Below are positions 55,419 through 62,679 of a stretch of DNA of 64,000 bases, one piece after another; position 1 is the first letter of the stretch, and the number at the start of each line of letters is the position of its first letter. The position numbers were made by a program, and so were the translations under genes. The stretch covers positions 12,460-76,459 of the forward strand of contig CAUTDF010000002.1 of assembly GCA_963537415.1 (NCBI GenBank), written 5' to 3'. Under the pieces are notes generated by a model that was not told where the DNA came from, did no database searches, and saw only the letters and a list, made by a program, of their open reading frames with translations. Origin of the DNA: an uncultured bacterium (GTDB lineage: Bacteria > Patescibacteriota > Gracilibacteria > Absconditabacterales > Absconditicoccaceae).

Positions 55419-56714
55419 ATGCCAGAAGCAGTAGTTGCTCAAAATATTACTACGGTTCCGCTTTCTGAGGTGAATCCACCAGAGCAAAAGAAACCTTCTT
55501 TTTTTGATAGAACGCTTGGAAAGCTTGTCGGATTTATTGCTAAGGCGACTGGACAGCCTGATCCTATTACTGGGATTAAAAATGGAGAATCTGCTCCAGC
55601 TCAGCAGGGGATGAATCAAGAATGAGTAGCGCAAATGCCTATTGAGGGGCAACAAGTTCCTCAGCAGGAGCCTTGATTTTTCCAAAAATTGGTTGCGAGT
55701 ACACAAAACCTGCTCAATAAGACAAATTCTGTAGCTAGCAGTATTACCAGCACGACCTCAAATATTGCTGGAAAGATTACTGAGAAAACGAATGCTGTTG
55801 CAGGTGCGATAACCTCAGCTCCAACAATGGTTGCAAATCAGGCAACAAACCTGATCAATAAGGGGGTTGATATGTGAGGTCAGCTTAAGGACTCTATCCA
55901 GACTAATGCACAAAGTCTTGCTGGGAATGTTCAAAATTTTGCAAGTAATCCAGTTTGAGGAGTGCAAAATTTTGTAGCTAATCCAATAGCTGGAGTCCAA
56001 AACATAGGAAATCAAGTTATGCAATCAGGTCAACAGGTGATGGCTTCTGCTCAACAGATGTGAGGTCAAGTAGTACATGGCGTTCAAAATGCTGGAGGTC
56101 AGGTAATGAACGGTGTTCAGAATGTTTGATGAGGAGTAGTTTCGAATATGCAAAATATGTGAGGACAGATGATGAATGGGGTTTCGCAGTTTGCAAGTAA
56201 TCCAGTTTGATGAGTTCAGAATTTTGTAGCTAATCCAATGGCTGGAGTCCAAAATATAGGAAATCAAGTAATGCAATCAGGGCAGCAAGTTGTTACTTCT
56301 GCTCAGCAGATGTGAGGACAAGTTGTGAATTCAGTTCAGGGTGTAGGAGTTCAGGTTCCTTTTCAAGTTCCAGTTCAGGCGACTGAATCTGTTCCTGTAC
56401 AAACTCAAGATGCGGTTGCTGTTCAAATACCTGAGAATGCTTCTCAGACTCAGGTAGTGGCGCAATCAGTTCCTGTTCAGCTTAATCCTATTGAAAATGT
56501 TTTCTCAGGAATCAAACAGGGGGCAACTAACTTTGTTGAGAAAACCAAGCAGTTTGTCCAAAATCCTGTTGAAAGTATTGATGGTTTTGCTGGATCTGGT
56601 GCTCAAACTGACCAAGTTTCAGTTCAAACAGAAACTGAGAATACAACCAGCTTAGATCAATTAGGAAATGGAAATCAGATAGAAAAATCTGAATCAGTTC
56701 CTGTGCAAATGTAG
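55419..56714 (+). CDS. Q/N/V/G-rich repeat protein, unknown function
   Basis: 431 aa in one frame with about 13 TGA, including two tandem TGA-TGA. 138-nt internal direct repeat (55938-56075 / 56190-56327) encoding FASNPVGGVQNFVANP.AGVQNIGNQVMQSGQQV..SAQQMGGQVV. Confidence 0.65.
55938..56327 (+). repeat. intragenic 138-nt direct repeat pair (55938-56075 and 56190-56327, offset 252 nt)
   Basis: The two copies align codon for codon with about 15 substitutions. Both contain TGA-encoded Gly. Confidence 0.8.
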
Positions 56715-59139: not shown

Positions 59140-59239
59140 AACAATATTATATGTATTTTTTGAAAAATGTCAAAAATGGCGAGAGATTTTTGATTTTAGG
59201 TTTTTGATAGTTGAGGACTACTTTATTTGCTAGTTGAGT

Positions 59240-60547
59240 ATGATGGCTATGGATTCGACAAAAAAACAGTTGCGAGATAAGTTGCAAGATGATATTAATG
59301 AGCTTACTCCCGGTTTGCAGGCTCTTTTAGAGACTGGGGCGAATAGGGGTATGATCGAGGAAGAAGAAGTGATCTCTGAAATTGATGATATGGAAGGAAA
59401 TATCAAGCTTCTTGAAAAGTTCTATGATCTCTCAGAAAAACTTGGAATCAAAATTGTAACGATTGAAGAGTTGCTTGAAAAAGAGCAGGAGTCTTTGAAA
59501 AAAGAGACTAAGCTTTGAAAAATTACGCTTTATGGTAAGGCGGATTATGCAGTTGATAATCAGTATAAGGATTATATCAAACTTTATTTTAATGATATCT
59601 CAAAAATTCCACTTCTGAACTATGAAGAGGAGAAGGAGGTTGCAAGAAGAATTAAAAAGTGAGATGAAGAAGCAAAGAAAAAGCTGATTGAGTCAAATTT
59701 AAGACTTGTGATTTCTATTGCTAAGAGATATTTGGGTTCTCGTTTGACGTTTTCTGATTTGATTCAGGAGGGGAATATCGGGCTTATTAAGGCTATTGAA
59801 AAATTTGATCCAGATAAGGAGTTTAAGTTTTCAACTTATGCGACTTGGTGGATTAAACAGTCGATCACAAAAGCGATTGCTGATATGACGAGACATGTGA
59901 GAATTCCAGTTCATTTGATTGATGAGATCAATTCCTATAATAAAACTTATCAGCTTCTTTTTCAAAAACTTGGTCGTGAACCGACAAGTAAAGAAATCGG
60001 ACAAAAGCTTTGATTCCCGATTAAAAAGATTAAAAAGCTGGAAGAAGTGATCTTTTGAAATGTTTCTCTGGATAGAGAAGTTGGGGATGAGGGAAGAGAT
60101 ACGCTTGCAGATCTTCTAGAGGATGGAAATACTCTTAGACCAGATCAGTTAGCCGAGAGAGCTGCTCTTAGAAATAACTTAGATAGTATTCTGGCTATGC
60201 TCGATGATAGAGAGGCAAAGATCGTGAAGATGAGATATGGAATTGATGGTCCGAAATTTACTCTTGAACAAGTTGGAGAAGAGTTTGATGTAACGAGGGA
60301 AAGAGTGAGACAAATTGAGCAAAAGGTTATTCAAAAACTGAAAGAACATCAGGGGCTTCAAAAAATGCTCGGAATTGAAGATGATATCGAAAAGCTTAAT
60401 AGTGAGTGAGGAAAGAAGAAAAGATGAAGAAAGCCAGCTCAGAAGCAGAAAGATGAATATCTTGATGATGAGGATTATGGAAGAGATGACTATGATGATA
60501 ATGATGATTTTGAGGAGTATAATTTTGATGAAGATGATGAGAGTTAG
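59240..60547 (+). CDS. rpoD: RNA polymerase sigma-70 factor with basic/acidic C-terminal tail
   Basis: [37 protein letters not shown], region 4 [20 protein letters not shown]. After TGA 60407 the frame continues with [46 protein letters not shown]. Start ATG 59240 (TTG 59234 also possible). Confidence 0.9.
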
Positions 60548-60582
60548 AGGCAAGGCTTCTAACTTTTTCTTAAAAAAATATC

Positions 60583-60610
60583 TTGACTTTCATAAAAAAA
60601 TCGTTATTTT
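60583..60610 (+). promoter_or_regulatory. cassette 1 promoter
   Basis: TTGACT (60583-60588)-N16-TATTTT (60605-60610). The block aaaaatcgtTATTTT is shared with cassette 2. Confidence 0.5.
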
Positions 60611-60654
60611 GTATTTTACAAATAAAAAAGTTGTACTAATTAAATTGTTTTTTT

Positions 60655-61179
60655 ATGGAAAAGATTTATCCTTCCGTAGGAGATGTTATCTCCCCAGTTG
60701 TTCCTAAAGCAACATTGTCAGCGTCAATAGAACTTTCTTATGCTGATCTCAAAGAAATTTCTAAAGCATTTTCTAGAGTTAATAAAGCTCTGGATAAAAA
60801 GATGAAAAGTTTGGGACCGGACTCTGGCGTTTCTCAAGAAGAGATCGTTGGAGATGTGGTTGATACACTTGCATCATCTGGGCGTCTTGCTGGGCTCGCT
60901 GCAGCTCCTGTAAAGGAGCTTGTGCTGAGTGATGATTTCTCGCTCTTCAAGCGGAATCTTGATGCTGAGATTAAACGCTATGGAGCTGAATGTAGAGATA
61001 AGGGGCAACCTCTGGTAACTTTTTATGCCCTCAACGGTAAAAAAGTTAGATCTAGGTTGGAAACTTGGATCCCTAAGTTGTTCGCAATTGAAAGCTGATG
61101 AACATTGCATCTTTTAGATGCGAAAACAGTACCTATATACAGGTGCTGTTTTTTGTTTAAAAAATATTGACTTTTATAG
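60655..61179 (+). CDS. orphan paralog cassette protein 1
   Basis: 147-aa core with no TGA, ending ...WIPKLFAIES. It is then followed by TGA-TGA (61096-61101). Strict table-25 translation runs through the terminator hairpin into the next promoter (TAG 61177). Confidence 0.6.
61125..61155 (+). terminator. cassette 1 terminator
   Basis: AACAGTACCT atatac AGGTGCTGTT plus T-run. Starts 24 nt after the TGA-TGA. Confidence 0.6.
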
Positions 61180-61194
61180 AAAAATCGTTATTTT
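61167..61194 (+). promoter_or_regulatory. cassette 2 promoter
   Basis: TTGACT (61167-61172)-N16-TATTTT (61189-61194). Confidence 0.5.
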
Positions 61195-61241
61195 ATAGAT
61201 TATATAAATAAAAGTAATCATTACTAAAAACATCATTTTTT

Positions 61242-61757
61242 ATGAGACAAAAAGGTCAAAATCAGATTGGGAGTTCTCTTTTCTCAGTCGAACTTCGGAA
61301 AATTATGCTGCCATTTATCGTGCTGTCTTACAATGATCTCAAAGAGCTTTCAAAAGCAATTACTAGAGTGAATAAACTTCTTAAGAAGTATAAAGATCAG
61401 AATCTTGAACTTGATTTATTCTCTAATGATTGTGAATCTTCCTTTTTGGGAGATGGGCTTGCTCAATTGGCAAATGAGCAAAAGCTTGCGCGCATGAAGC
61501 CTATGATTTTAAAAGAGTTGATGCTTTCTGATGACTTCTTGGAGTTTAAAAAAGGTCTTAAGGTTTATTTAGAATCTGCATCTTATCTGTTCCGAGATTC
61601 TGAGCAACCTGAGTTTCTTTTCTCAGATTCTCAAATCCTTCCTCCTGGAGTTTCTAAGTTTGAGCTTTGGGTTCCCAAGCTTTTATCTTTAGAAAGTTGA
61701 GGAAGATTGTATTCACTTTGAATAGGAAACAGTATCTGTCTCAGATACTGTTTTTAA
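61242..61757 (+). CDS. orphan paralog cassette protein 2
   Basis: 152-aa core, LSYNDLKELSKAITRVNKLL and ...WVPKLLSLES shared with cassette 1. TGA at 61698, then read-through of the hairpin to TAA 61755. Confidence 0.6.
61728..61756 (+). terminator. cassette 2 terminator
   Basis: Perfect 11-bp AACAGTATCTG tct CAGATACTGTT plus T-run. Confidence 0.65.
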
Positions 61758-61762
61758 ATTTC

Positions 61763-61790
61763 TTGACTTTTTCTTAAAAATGTTTATCTA
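61763..61790 (+). promoter_or_regulatory. cassette 3 promoter
   Basis: TTGACT (61763-61768)-N16-TATCTA (61785-61790). Confidence 0.45.
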
Positions 61791-61817
61791 TATATTCACA
61801 ATTAAATAAAAAAGGAT

Positions 61818-62237
61818 ATGGGAACAAAAGAAAAAAATCTGATTTTTGTCGCTCGTTGTCTAGGTAATGGAAAGATTATTCATTATTCTTTAGATGAGGT
61901 TAGTATTTTGGCTGAAGATGTTTTAGTCTATGCTCAGGCGCTTAAAGAGAAGAAGGACAACCGTTTGAAGAATGGTTTGTATCGTTATGATTATGCGAAT
62001 ATCGCACCAGATATTCTCTACAAATTAAAAGAGGAAAATAAGCTTAAGCTTGCAAATTCTCAAGTTTTATTAGCACTTGGGCGAGGCGCAGATTTCTTTC
62101 CACTAGTTTGTGAAATCAAGAATATTCAGTCTAAACTAGGAATGGGTAAAATAGGTAATTCTGGTCAACTTGAGCTTTCATCTGAAGCTCCTCTTTTTAA
62201 TACTTGGATTACTCGACTTCTACCCAAGCGGAATTAA
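61818..62237 (+). CDS. orphan paralog cassette protein 3 (divergent)
   Basis: 139 aa, no TGA. C-terminal FNTWITRLLPKRN aligns with cassettes 1 and 2, and its TAA falls exactly where they have TGA. Confidence 0.6.
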   Translation: MGTKEKNLIFVARCLGNGKIIHYSLDEVSILAEDVLVYAQALKEKKDNRLKNGLYRYDYANIAPDILYKLKEENKLKLANSQVLLALGRGADFFPLVCEIKNIQSKLGMGKIGNSGQLELSSEAPLFNTWITRLLPKRN

Positions 62238-62248
62238 AAAATTAGAAA

Positions 62249-62277
62249 AACAGCACCTGTATGAGGTCGCTGTTTTA
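62249..62277. terminator. cassette 3 / ruvX bidirectional terminator
   Basis: AACAGCACCT gtatg AGGTCGCTGTT plus T-run. Same AACAG...CTGTT stem family as cassettes 1 and 2. Confidence 0.6.
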
Positions 62278-62679
62278 GTTTTCAGATTTTTTTGATTGTT
62301 TTCGTCTTTCAAGGATAATCATTGCACTGATGGTGTCTGTCGTTGCATTTTTTTTGAAGTCAGAAACGATTTCTCCTGATTGCACACTACTGAAATCTTC
62401 ATCTATAGTTTCGATTTCAATCCTTTGATTTTCAATGATATAATTAAGAGATTCCATAAATTTTGTGATATGTTCTTGGATATCTTTTTGTTTCTGGGGC
62501 CATCAGAGAATGATTTTTCTAATGTGATATCTCTGGATGAGATCTGCTATATAGTAATAGGTCATTGCATCATTCATTACATATCCAATCGGAAAAACGA
62601 CATCTGCATTGAGCGGAGTATAGGCGAGGCCAATATATTTACTACCTCGATCAATACCAAGAGCATGAGAAACTTTCAT
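62275..62679 (-). CDS. ruvX: YqgF/RuvX-family nuclease (pre-16S rRNA nuclease)
   Basis: LGIDRGSKYIGLAY, IIL-G-WPQ, IDEDFSSVQS, DTISAMIILE. 134 aa. Confidence 0.75.

Follow-up and report, generated by a model that had tools for sequence, protein, structure and literature searches.

How should three neighbouring genes be understood that hold no internal TGA codon, carry TGA or another standard-code stop at their conserved ends, and reside in a bacterium that reads TGA as glycine? This question is raised by a locus directly downstream of the sigma-70 gene rpoD in an uncultured bacterium of the Absconditicoccaceae. We analysed the surrounding stretch of 64,000 nucleotides (C2:12460-76459 of the genome; hereafter the window, to which all positions refer unless a contig is named). 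The locus consists of three units, spaced 584 and 596 bp apart, each with a promoter, an open reading frame (ORF) and a terminator hairpin; we call the encoded proteins P1, P2 and P3. The P2 of the window is of type P2a, and in some strains (G010 type) the middle slot holds a different gene, P2b. Comparison of the alleles indicates that the cassette genes read alike under both the standard code and code 25, with a terminal stop that is kept by selection.

The genetic code of the genome

The genome (985,910 bp in 28 contigs, 99.8% complete) uses code 25, in which TGA stands for glycine. It encodes a tRNA-Gly with anticodon UCA, and rpoD can only be read as a single ORF of 437 aa by reading through six TGA codons. 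RF1 is the sole class-I release factor; its score passes the cut-off for prfA and falls short of that for prfB, and the protein carries a P-D-T motif and is itself encoded by a gene with an in-frame TGA. Neither RF2 nor ArfB was found in the genome. The rescue and proteolysis components transfer-messenger RNA (tmRNA), SmpB and ClpP are all present; the tmRNA gene (G000 C3:60710-61092, minus strand; Rfam match of 75 bits) was missed by ARAGORN both in the genome scan and at its own locus.

Across 376 long ORFs, TGA makes up 26.5% of the glycine codons, or 17.7 per 1000 codons. TGA is scarce in highly expressed genes, with 0 of 35 glycine codons in EF-Tu, 1 of 57 in EF-G, 1 of 37 in FtsZ, 1 of 38 in RuBisCO and 0 of 21 in tig, and 81 of the 814 genes of at least 100 aa (mostly those for ribosomal proteins and lipoproteins) are TGA-free. 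The TGA share of glycine codons also falls with the codon adaptation index (CAI, computed without glycine codons; rho -0.41). The falling share and the rarity in highly expressed genes suggest that UGA is poorly decoded as glycine here.

Where the cassette genes end

A first-pass annotation of the window, made from the letters alone, had described TGA-free ORFs of 139-152 aa. With TGA taken as a stop this is accurate (147, 152 and 139 aa), and under code 25 it fails for the first two. The label TGA-free also conceals that ORF1 and ORF2 have as their final codon a TGA, which means glycine in this genome. With tRNA-Gly(UCA), and with RF1 but no RF2, P1 and P2 would not be stopped at TGA; ORF1 then extends to 61179 (174 aa) and ORF2 to 61757 (171 aa), in both cases through the gene's own terminator. 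Gene callers accordingly report P1 products of either 147 aa or 174-186 aa, depending on the code chosen.

The alleles themselves point to the shorter version. We compared, at the DNA level, the codon ten places after a conserved Trp in 26 genes, a set that holds fewer independent cases than 26, as three added strains are near-identical. This codon is TGA in 20 genes, TAG in four (all of them P2b) and TAA in one (the P3 of the window); in the remaining gene, the P3 of G001, a 1-nt insertion shortly before the terminal codon shifts it out of place. A sense codon was never found at this position (0/26), whereas the next codon occurs in eight different states. Near-identical P3 alleles even differ only by TAA versus TGA. 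Likewise, the roughly 30 P1 variants in the database all end in ...IES, followed by a called stop or a W, with R, Q or W next; since the W stems from gene callers using code 4, the codon in question is TGA.

The stretch behind the terminal codon evolves as a structured 3' untranslated region. Its reading frame is not conserved, as a 1-nt insertion shifts it in G006 and G001, and the code-25 products (171-192 aa) have unrelated ends. The RNA structure, on the other hand, is conserved: the insertion falls within a small hairpin, at its loop, and where the terminator stem differs between species the bases still pair. Pairing of the mRNA start region with the stretch after TGA was tested, and none was found. 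Within the genes, TGA accounts for 0 of 103 glycine codons in 13 orthologs and for 0 of 25 in the window genes, the latter having a chance of about 4.5e-4 at the genome-wide rate. Taken together, the fixed TGA/TAA/TAG, the uniform ...IES ends, the unconserved frame over a conserved RNA and the TGA-free bodies indicate that the conserved protein ends at this codon.

Stops that code 25 does recognize lie further on. The next TAA or TAG is found 19-45 codons beyond the terminal TGA, at a distance that varies between species. For P1 it is predicted to lie past the U-tract of the terminator in all five genomes that carry the family (in the window, TAG at 61177 versus a U-tract at about 61152). The same applies to the TGA-ended P3 alleles, and in P2 it lies at the edge of the U-tract.

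TGA avoidance within and beyond the locus

Codon bias due to high expression was considered as a full explanation of the TGA avoidance and rejected, as the CAI of the cassette genes is only average (47th percentile for P1, 62nd for P2 and 31st for P3); as part of the explanation it is plausible. In genes of similar CAI, TGA makes up 27-31% of the glycine codons, and 3-9% of these genes are TGA-free. The average CAI and a typical GC content at third codon positions (GC3, 0.26-0.32) show that the cassette genes are neither codon-adapted nor compositionally foreign.

The pattern is not restricted to the three cassettes. Among the approximately 284 genes with a predicted 3' terminator, 270 have their TAA or TAG stop ahead of the hairpin, and in the other 14 the frame continues across it. 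In six of these 14 an in-frame TGA lies shortly before the hairpin or inside it, and all six are TGA-free over 105-299 body codons. The other members of this small class are mostly orphans as well, one of them with an NYN domain. Two of these families, unrelated to the cassettes, could be followed through their orthologs, which have a TGA-free interior and the same terminator downstream. In the C10:20362 family, four genomes show ...VKAER and then TGA, and the ortholog in G008 is one codon longer and ends in ...DAEQC and TAA. In the C1:10951 family, five genomes show ...VQFT and then TGA, with ...IDFI and TAA at the corresponding end in G004.

A genome-wide use of TGA as gene end was rejected, since TGA is not enriched near 3' ends (14 of 70, versus 25 of 81 at 5' ends). 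No distinctive nucleotide context of the terminal TGAs was found either. The end-on-TGA pattern is thus seen only in a class of cassette genes that are lineage-specific and evolve fast.

An orphan protein family

That P1 and P2 are paralogs is clear, as the shared motifs noted in the first-pass annotation had suggested (36% identity, BLASTP E=2e-25; 99.5% in hhalign on profiles of the trimmed sequences). P3, described there as a divergent member, is harder to place: by BLASTP it matches neither P1 (E 1.4) nor P2 (E 0.055) significantly, and by profile its similarity is weak, though colinear (P=6e-4). The gap is bridged by P2b, which gives matches to P1 (E 2e-10), P2a (3e-6) and P3 (6e-5, colinear). 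In addition, the AlphaFold models of P1 (pLDDT 81, pTM 0.74) and P3 (pLDDT 76, pTM 0.74) have an identical order and length of elements, namely a β-strand, helices with lengths near 25, 14, 9 and 18 residues and, after a loop, a C-terminal helix, with P3 offset by about four residues. The bridging by P2b and the common predicted fold thus argue that P3 is a diverged paralog and that P1, P2 and P3 form one orphan family.

This family comprises at least four deep lineages (P1, P2a, P2b and P3). Its products of about 140-150 aa have no signal sequence and are predicted to be mainly helical, with a conserved core formed by helix 1 (LSYxDLKEISKA..RVNK), helix 3 (KELxLSDDF) and the C-terminal W-I-P-K-L helix. 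The first-pass annotation had recognized no known domain, and the searches agree. Pfam, PHROGs and NCBIfam gave no match for P1-P3, and the PADLOC defence models none for P1, P2 and P3 and only noise for P2b. Foldseek returned no match with E <0.4 for the P1 model against PDB and the viral-structure collection BFVD, or for the P3 model against PDB, and a sequence-profile search of PDB gave nothing significant for the family. A profile search of 1.84 billion representatives retrieved the family itself and tetratricopeptide repeat (TPR) proteins of the TPR_10/TPR_12 type, and nothing else. Membership of the TPR proteins was rejected, as only a single helix motif matches and the E-values are inflated by three to seven repeated partial matches. 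The locus defines a new orphan protein family, with a predicted fold that is new as well.

Duplication of whole cassettes

The regulatory parts of the cassettes (Table 1) are predicted to be those of autonomous units. The -35 boxes (TTGACT) given in the first-pass annotation at 60583, 61167 and 61763 were found at exactly these coordinates, with the -10 hexamer 16 nt downstream. By consensus match they belong to sigma-70-type promoters, two of them TTGACT-N16-TATTTT and one TTGACT-N16-TATCTA. Four hairpins, including the one behind rpoD, combine a stable stem-loop with a U-tract and are predicted intrinsic terminators. The three cassette hairpins, earlier assigned to one AACAG...CTGTT family, were borne out by their folding energies (-14.8 to -17.7 kcal/mol) and z-scores (-3.9 to -5.3), each with a T-run after it.

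Both types of element set the locus apart. The promoter module TTGACTTT-N4-6-AAAAAT-N1-3-TTAT has three sites in the 986-kb genome, all in these cassettes. Ends of the form AACAG...CTGTT occur in 6 of 467 terminator-like hairpins genome-wide, and the terminators of P1 and P2 are among the six; the bulged P3 hairpin failed the strict scan and thus stands outside this count. A promoter module unique to the locus and terminators of one family indicate that the regulatory parts were duplicated along with the genes. This supports the proposed tandem duplication of the whole unit of promoter, gene and terminator.

The terminator of cassette 3 lies at the stop of ruvX, and on the minus strand it also reads as a hairpin followed by a T-run; it is therefore probably bidirectional. 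TCAGA/TCTGA is found within 106 of the 467 terminator-like hairpins of the genome. The 9-mer AAAATCTGA/TCAGATTTT has 624 copies in 986 kb, 27 times the expectation, with examples at 61835-61850 and 61256-61266.

Table 1. Coordinates of the cassette locus (window positions) and of further lineage-specific genes, mostly orphans, with the same kind of end (contig positions)
Feature	Position	Strand	Remarks
rpoD (sigma-70), context, outside the cassettes	59234..60547	+	437 aa under code 25, 6 in-frame TGA; Sigma70_r1_2/r2/r3/r4 in syntenic gene
rpoD intrinsic terminator	60542..60564	+	13-bp, overlaps rpoD TAG stop; -15.3 kcal/mol, z -3.3, then T-run
Cassette 1 promoter (predicted)	60583..60610	+	TTGACT-16 nt-TATTTT; consensus match
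P1 conserved coding body	60655..61095	+	147 aa, no internal TGA; ORF to 61098
TGA TGA at P1 functional end	61096..61101	+	Gly-Gly under code 25; first TGA kept in all P1 copies examined; second codon TGA/CAA/CGA
Small conserved 3' hairpin	61107..61121	+	GCATC-loop-GATGC; loop holds frameshifting 1-nt insertion of G006, G001
Cassette 1 intrinsic terminator (predicted)	61123..61156	+	AAAACAGTACCT / AGGTGCTGTTTT + T-run; hairpin 61125-61150
P1 first in-frame TAG under code 25	61177..61179	+	past U-tract, within cassette 2 promoter
Cassette 2 promoter (predicted)	61167..61194	+	TTGACT-16 nt-TATTTT; consensus match
P2 (type P2a) conserved coding body	61242..61697	+	152 aa, no internal TGA; ORF to 61700
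TGA at P2 functional end	61698..61700	+	TAG at same position in G010-type allele P2b
Cassette 2 intrinsic terminator (predicted)	61725..61757	+	hairpin 61728-61752; code-25 stop TAA 61755-61757 at U-tract end
Cassette 3 promoter (predicted)	61763..61790	+	TTGACT-16 nt-TATCTA; consensus match
P3	61818..62237	+	139 aa, ends TAA here; TGA at this position in near-identical alleles elsewhere
Cassette 3 terminator (predicted)	62246..62279	.	hairpin 62249-62274; also reads as terminator for convergent ruvX (62275-62679, minus)
Further lineage-specific gene	G000 C1:10951-11508	+	TGA-free body, TGA directly before intrinsic terminator
Further lineage-specific gene	G000 C10:20362-20976	+	TGA-free body, TGA directly before intrinsic terminator
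Further lineage-specific gene	G000 C10:34846-35316	-	TGA-free body, TGA directly before intrinsic terminator
Further gene	G000 C26:3673-4707	-	same TGA-free, TGA-before-terminator class
Further gene	G000 C7:795-1124	+	same TGA-free, TGA-before-terminator class
Further gene	G000 C19:8837-9154	+	same TGA-free, TGA-before-terminator class

A variable island in a fixed chromosomal slot

The family was found in 5 of the 17 genomes of the genus, and these five represent closely related species with virtually identical rpoD. A further 44 genomes from the family and class lack it. Two of the five carriers have P1 and P3 alone, so the copy number is two or three. In a collection of 5.8 billion proteins, about 37 variants of P1, 4 of P2 and 18 of P3 are present; none of them has a name, and their identity to the query is 61% or higher. 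On every contig examined, including those of metagenomic strains, the slot is the same: greA-ftsJ-rpoD-[2 or 3 cassettes]-ruvX-tig. Outside the clade, the synteny downstream of rpoD differs and the adjacency is absent. The count of copies and locations in related genomes, which the first-pass annotation had proposed, thus yields two or three copies in one slot in five species. The locus is a chromosomal island that varies between strains and holds two or three self-contained units.

The cassette ORFs are real coding genes that evolve fast. For orthologs of each of the three lineages, the ratio of nonsynonymous to synonymous substitution rates (dN/dS) amounts to 0.25-0.54, compared with 0.01 for rpoD, and the synonymous rate (dS) reaches 0.9, versus 0.13-0.2 for rpoD. 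In addition, the P1 alleles are mosaic: in one pair, identity is 100% over the initial 75 nt and drops to 68% in a later segment, and a second pair shows 99% and 60% segment identity. The four-gamete test is failed by 1306 of 3916 informative site pairs, and the genomes group differently for P1 and P3. Most of the variation is located in the disordered N-terminus, the inter-helix loops and helix 4, whereas the alleles agree well in helix 1, in helix 3 and towards the C-terminus. These patterns indicate that variable segments are reshuffled between strains by recombination. Whole-cassette duplication had earlier been ascribed to pressure for either dosage or diversification. The second of these agrees with the dN/dS, the mosaic alleles and the variable copy number; the first does not, as the copies are far too diverged for a dosage explanation.

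The neighbouring rpoD has a feature of its own. Behind region 4 it carries a tail of some 50 aa (60400-60547) that is first basic and then extremely acidic, with a 6-aa insertion in G010. Further upstream (55419-56714, plus strand), the window encodes a protein of 431 aa with a high content of Q, V, N and G, long internal repeats NPVGGVQNFVANP(I/M)AGVQNIGNQVMQSGQQV and 11 in-frame TGA codons.

What the locus may be

We hold with moderate confidence that the locus is a hypervariable island of moron-like orphan cassettes that are compatible with both codes, probably derive from TGA-avoiding mobile DNA and are not tied to rpoD. The probable source would be code-11-compatible mobile DNA that avoids TGA, as described for predicted phages of Absconditabacteria, and the cassettes would act as moron-like accessory genes, with a role in conflict or specificity, either against phages or in the interaction between this bacterium and its host. 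A function in conflict or specificity seems most likely to us, and it is the evolutionary behaviour of the genes that points there: mosaic alleles and a variable copy number are what populations would show at a determinant of conflict or specificity in Absconditabacteria (SR1).

At the level of translation, ribosomes would insert glycine at the terminal TGA by means of tRNA-Gly(UCA), with RF1 as the only release factor, and would then enter the 3' hairpins. As the next stop lies past the U-tract, or in P2 at its edge, transcripts that end at the terminator would have no in-frame stop and would be handed to tmRNA/SmpB rescue and proteolysis; a tailed product would be expected from read-through transcripts alone. 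The locus serves as a clean and compact test case of a native gene under purifying selection that ends on an amino-acid codon without a release factor. The recurrence of the pattern in at least two other families of the clade bears on the annotation of all code-25 genomes. It also bears on the movement of genes between organisms with different codes, and on the question whether bacterial codon reassignment may stay incomplete.

Several observations weigh against this reading. No homolog was found among the IMG/VR viral contigs and the GenBank phages (INPHARED), and all variants occupy one chromosomal slot with no mobile-element genes nearby, so that a mobile origin is something we only infer. 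Composition does not betray a foreign source, with native GC3 and average CAI. About 10% of the genes in the genome are TGA-free, including those for EF-Tu, ribosomal proteins, tig and lipoproteins, and TGA avoidance alone may therefore reflect translational selection. Nor is TGA in excess near 3' ends across the genome. The PADLOC search gave no match to a defence system or toxin, and the argument for a function comes down to evolutionary behaviour.

Other explanations have to be set against the same evidence. The cassette genes may simply be native orphan paralogs, without internal TGA due to selection for efficient translation and with a terminal TGA that is a relic of a TAA-to-TGA change and adds a harmless tail. 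The TGA avoidance of highly expressed genes (EF-Tu, EF-G, tig), its correlation with CAI, the 81 TGA-free genes, the native GC3, the missing genome-wide 3' excess and the alternation of TAA and TGA between near-identical P3 alleles would all suit such genes. We nonetheless regard this as rather unlikely. At the 31st-62nd CAI percentile of P1-P3, TGA amounts to about 30% of glycine codons and TGA-free genes are uncommon; neutral drift to sense codons would be expected, but none has occurred in the 26 genes or in the two other families while the next codon took on eight states; and the tail of P1 has no in-frame stop before the predicted end of the transcript. The stop-like conservation of TGA, which swaps only with TAA or TAG in three unrelated families, might instead mean that UGA is context-dependent, being glycine inside genes and an effective end signal in the cassettes through slow decoding near the 3' end, with rescue or release. 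That the bodies of all six genes reading through a terminator behind a TGA are TGA-free, and that TGA seems disfavoured in highly expressed genes, would fit. However, with RF2 and ArfB not found, an RF1 with an ordinary P-x-T motif as the only factor, no distinctive context of the terminal TGAs and no genome-wide signal, we judge such a context-dependent UGA to be improbable, and we know of no mechanism of this kind in bacteria. Put more generally, UGA could keep a second, selected end-of-gene role in lineage-specific cassette genes, in which translation would finish at UGA or directly behind it, by a route other than classical RF2 termination (e.g., slow decoding at the end of the transcript and then rescue). 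This is doubtful too; if true, one bacterial cell would use one codon in two ways.

In all five genomes, as in the metagenomic strains, the cassettes follow immediately after rpoD, which invites the idea that these small, cytoplasmic proteins (helical in the models) are partners of sigma-70, that is, Rsd- or AsiA-like anti-sigma or accessory factors placed there for co-regulation. The first-pass annotation had flagged the position while calling a functional link speculation, and no such link emerged. The predicted terminator of rpoD would insulate the cassettes from it, and each cassette gene has a predicted promoter of its own. A near-invariant rpoD next to hypervariable proteins of varying copy number is a poor fit with a conserved binding partner, Pfam, NCBIfam and PDB offer no sequence or fold match to Rsd/AlgQ, AsiA or any sigma-binding protein, and the adjacency is limited to one tight clade. 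A sigma partner is therefore a very improbable reading, and the cassettes are probably not functionally tied to rpoD. Equally remote, in our judgement, is the notion that standard-code readability is kept for expression in a standard-code cell, either the bacterial host of the epibiont or a cell reached by a dual-host mobile element that exchanges alleles. A portable sigma-70 promoter and intrinsic terminator for each gene, the absence of internal TGA, standard-code stops under selection and mosaic alleles agree with it, as does the proposal that these bacteria have dual-host phages of a code-11-compatible kind (PMC10746230). Against it stand the native composition and the searches, which turned up copies in SR1 chromosomes only and none among the viral collections. 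The cassettes would moreover have to be transferred, and we know of no mechanism for this.

Comparison with known systems

At the protein level, the nearest resemblance is to TPR_10/TPR_12 (PF13374, PF13424): helix 1 of the cassette proteins, DLKEISKAFSRVNKALDK, resembles the TPR repeat consensus EYSKALSFYEKALDI. The cassette proteins differ in having one such motif, and on P1-P3 the Pfam TPR models stay below any threshold. The predicted fold, with a pair of β-strands and five helices of unequal length, is also not a TPR solenoid.

With regard to gene ends, there is a parallel in Condylostoma and Blastocrithidia, eukaryotes with context-dependent stop codons in which eRF1 and poly(A)-linked termination are involved. 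In these organisms, as seemingly in the cassettes, one codon is sense inside genes and an end signal near the 3' end of the mRNA. The cassette case differs in that its evidence is evolutionary, and a release factor reading UGA was not found in the genome. In terms of fate, a counterpart lies in arfA of E. coli and brfA of B. subtilis, genes that are expressed from mRNA without a stop and kept low by trans-translation. Here too, an in-frame hairpin or terminator is predicted to leave a P1 mRNA without a stop, which would then pass to tmRNA/SmpB. The cassette proteins, however, have no similarity to these factors in sequence or fold, and their non-stop state would come from codon reassignment.

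As for architecture, Hendrix and colleagues reportedly described phage morons as units of promoter, gene and terminator inserted between conserved genes. The cassettes are likewise predicted to be autonomous units with their own sigma-70-type promoter and intrinsic terminator, and, like moron accessory genes, they are strain-variable and sit between unrelated conserved genes. They differ from morons in lying outside any prophage (with greA, ftsJ, rpoD, ruvX and tig as neighbours) and in that the unit itself has been tandemly duplicated and diversified.

The coding style, finally, has its counterpart in phages of the same bacteria. Our literature search, which was limited and is no proof of absence, found no description of chromosomal genes in a code-11-compatible style. 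For oral Absconditabacteria and Gracilibacteria, Liu et al. (2023, mBio; PMC10746230) predicted code-11-compatible phages, whose genes have no in-frame TGA and whose TGA stops are followed closely by other stops. They proposed that this compatibility widens the host range of the phages; integrated prophages were all clearly code 25 (PMC10746230). The cassettes depart from this model in being chromosomal, in a fixed slot and without phage homologs in the collections searched. Their back-up stop is 19-27 codons off at this locus, and for P1 it is predicted to lie past the terminator. What they share with the code-11-compatible phages is the coding style: genes without in-frame TGA in a code-25 setting, with TGA at the gene ends and later stops beyond.

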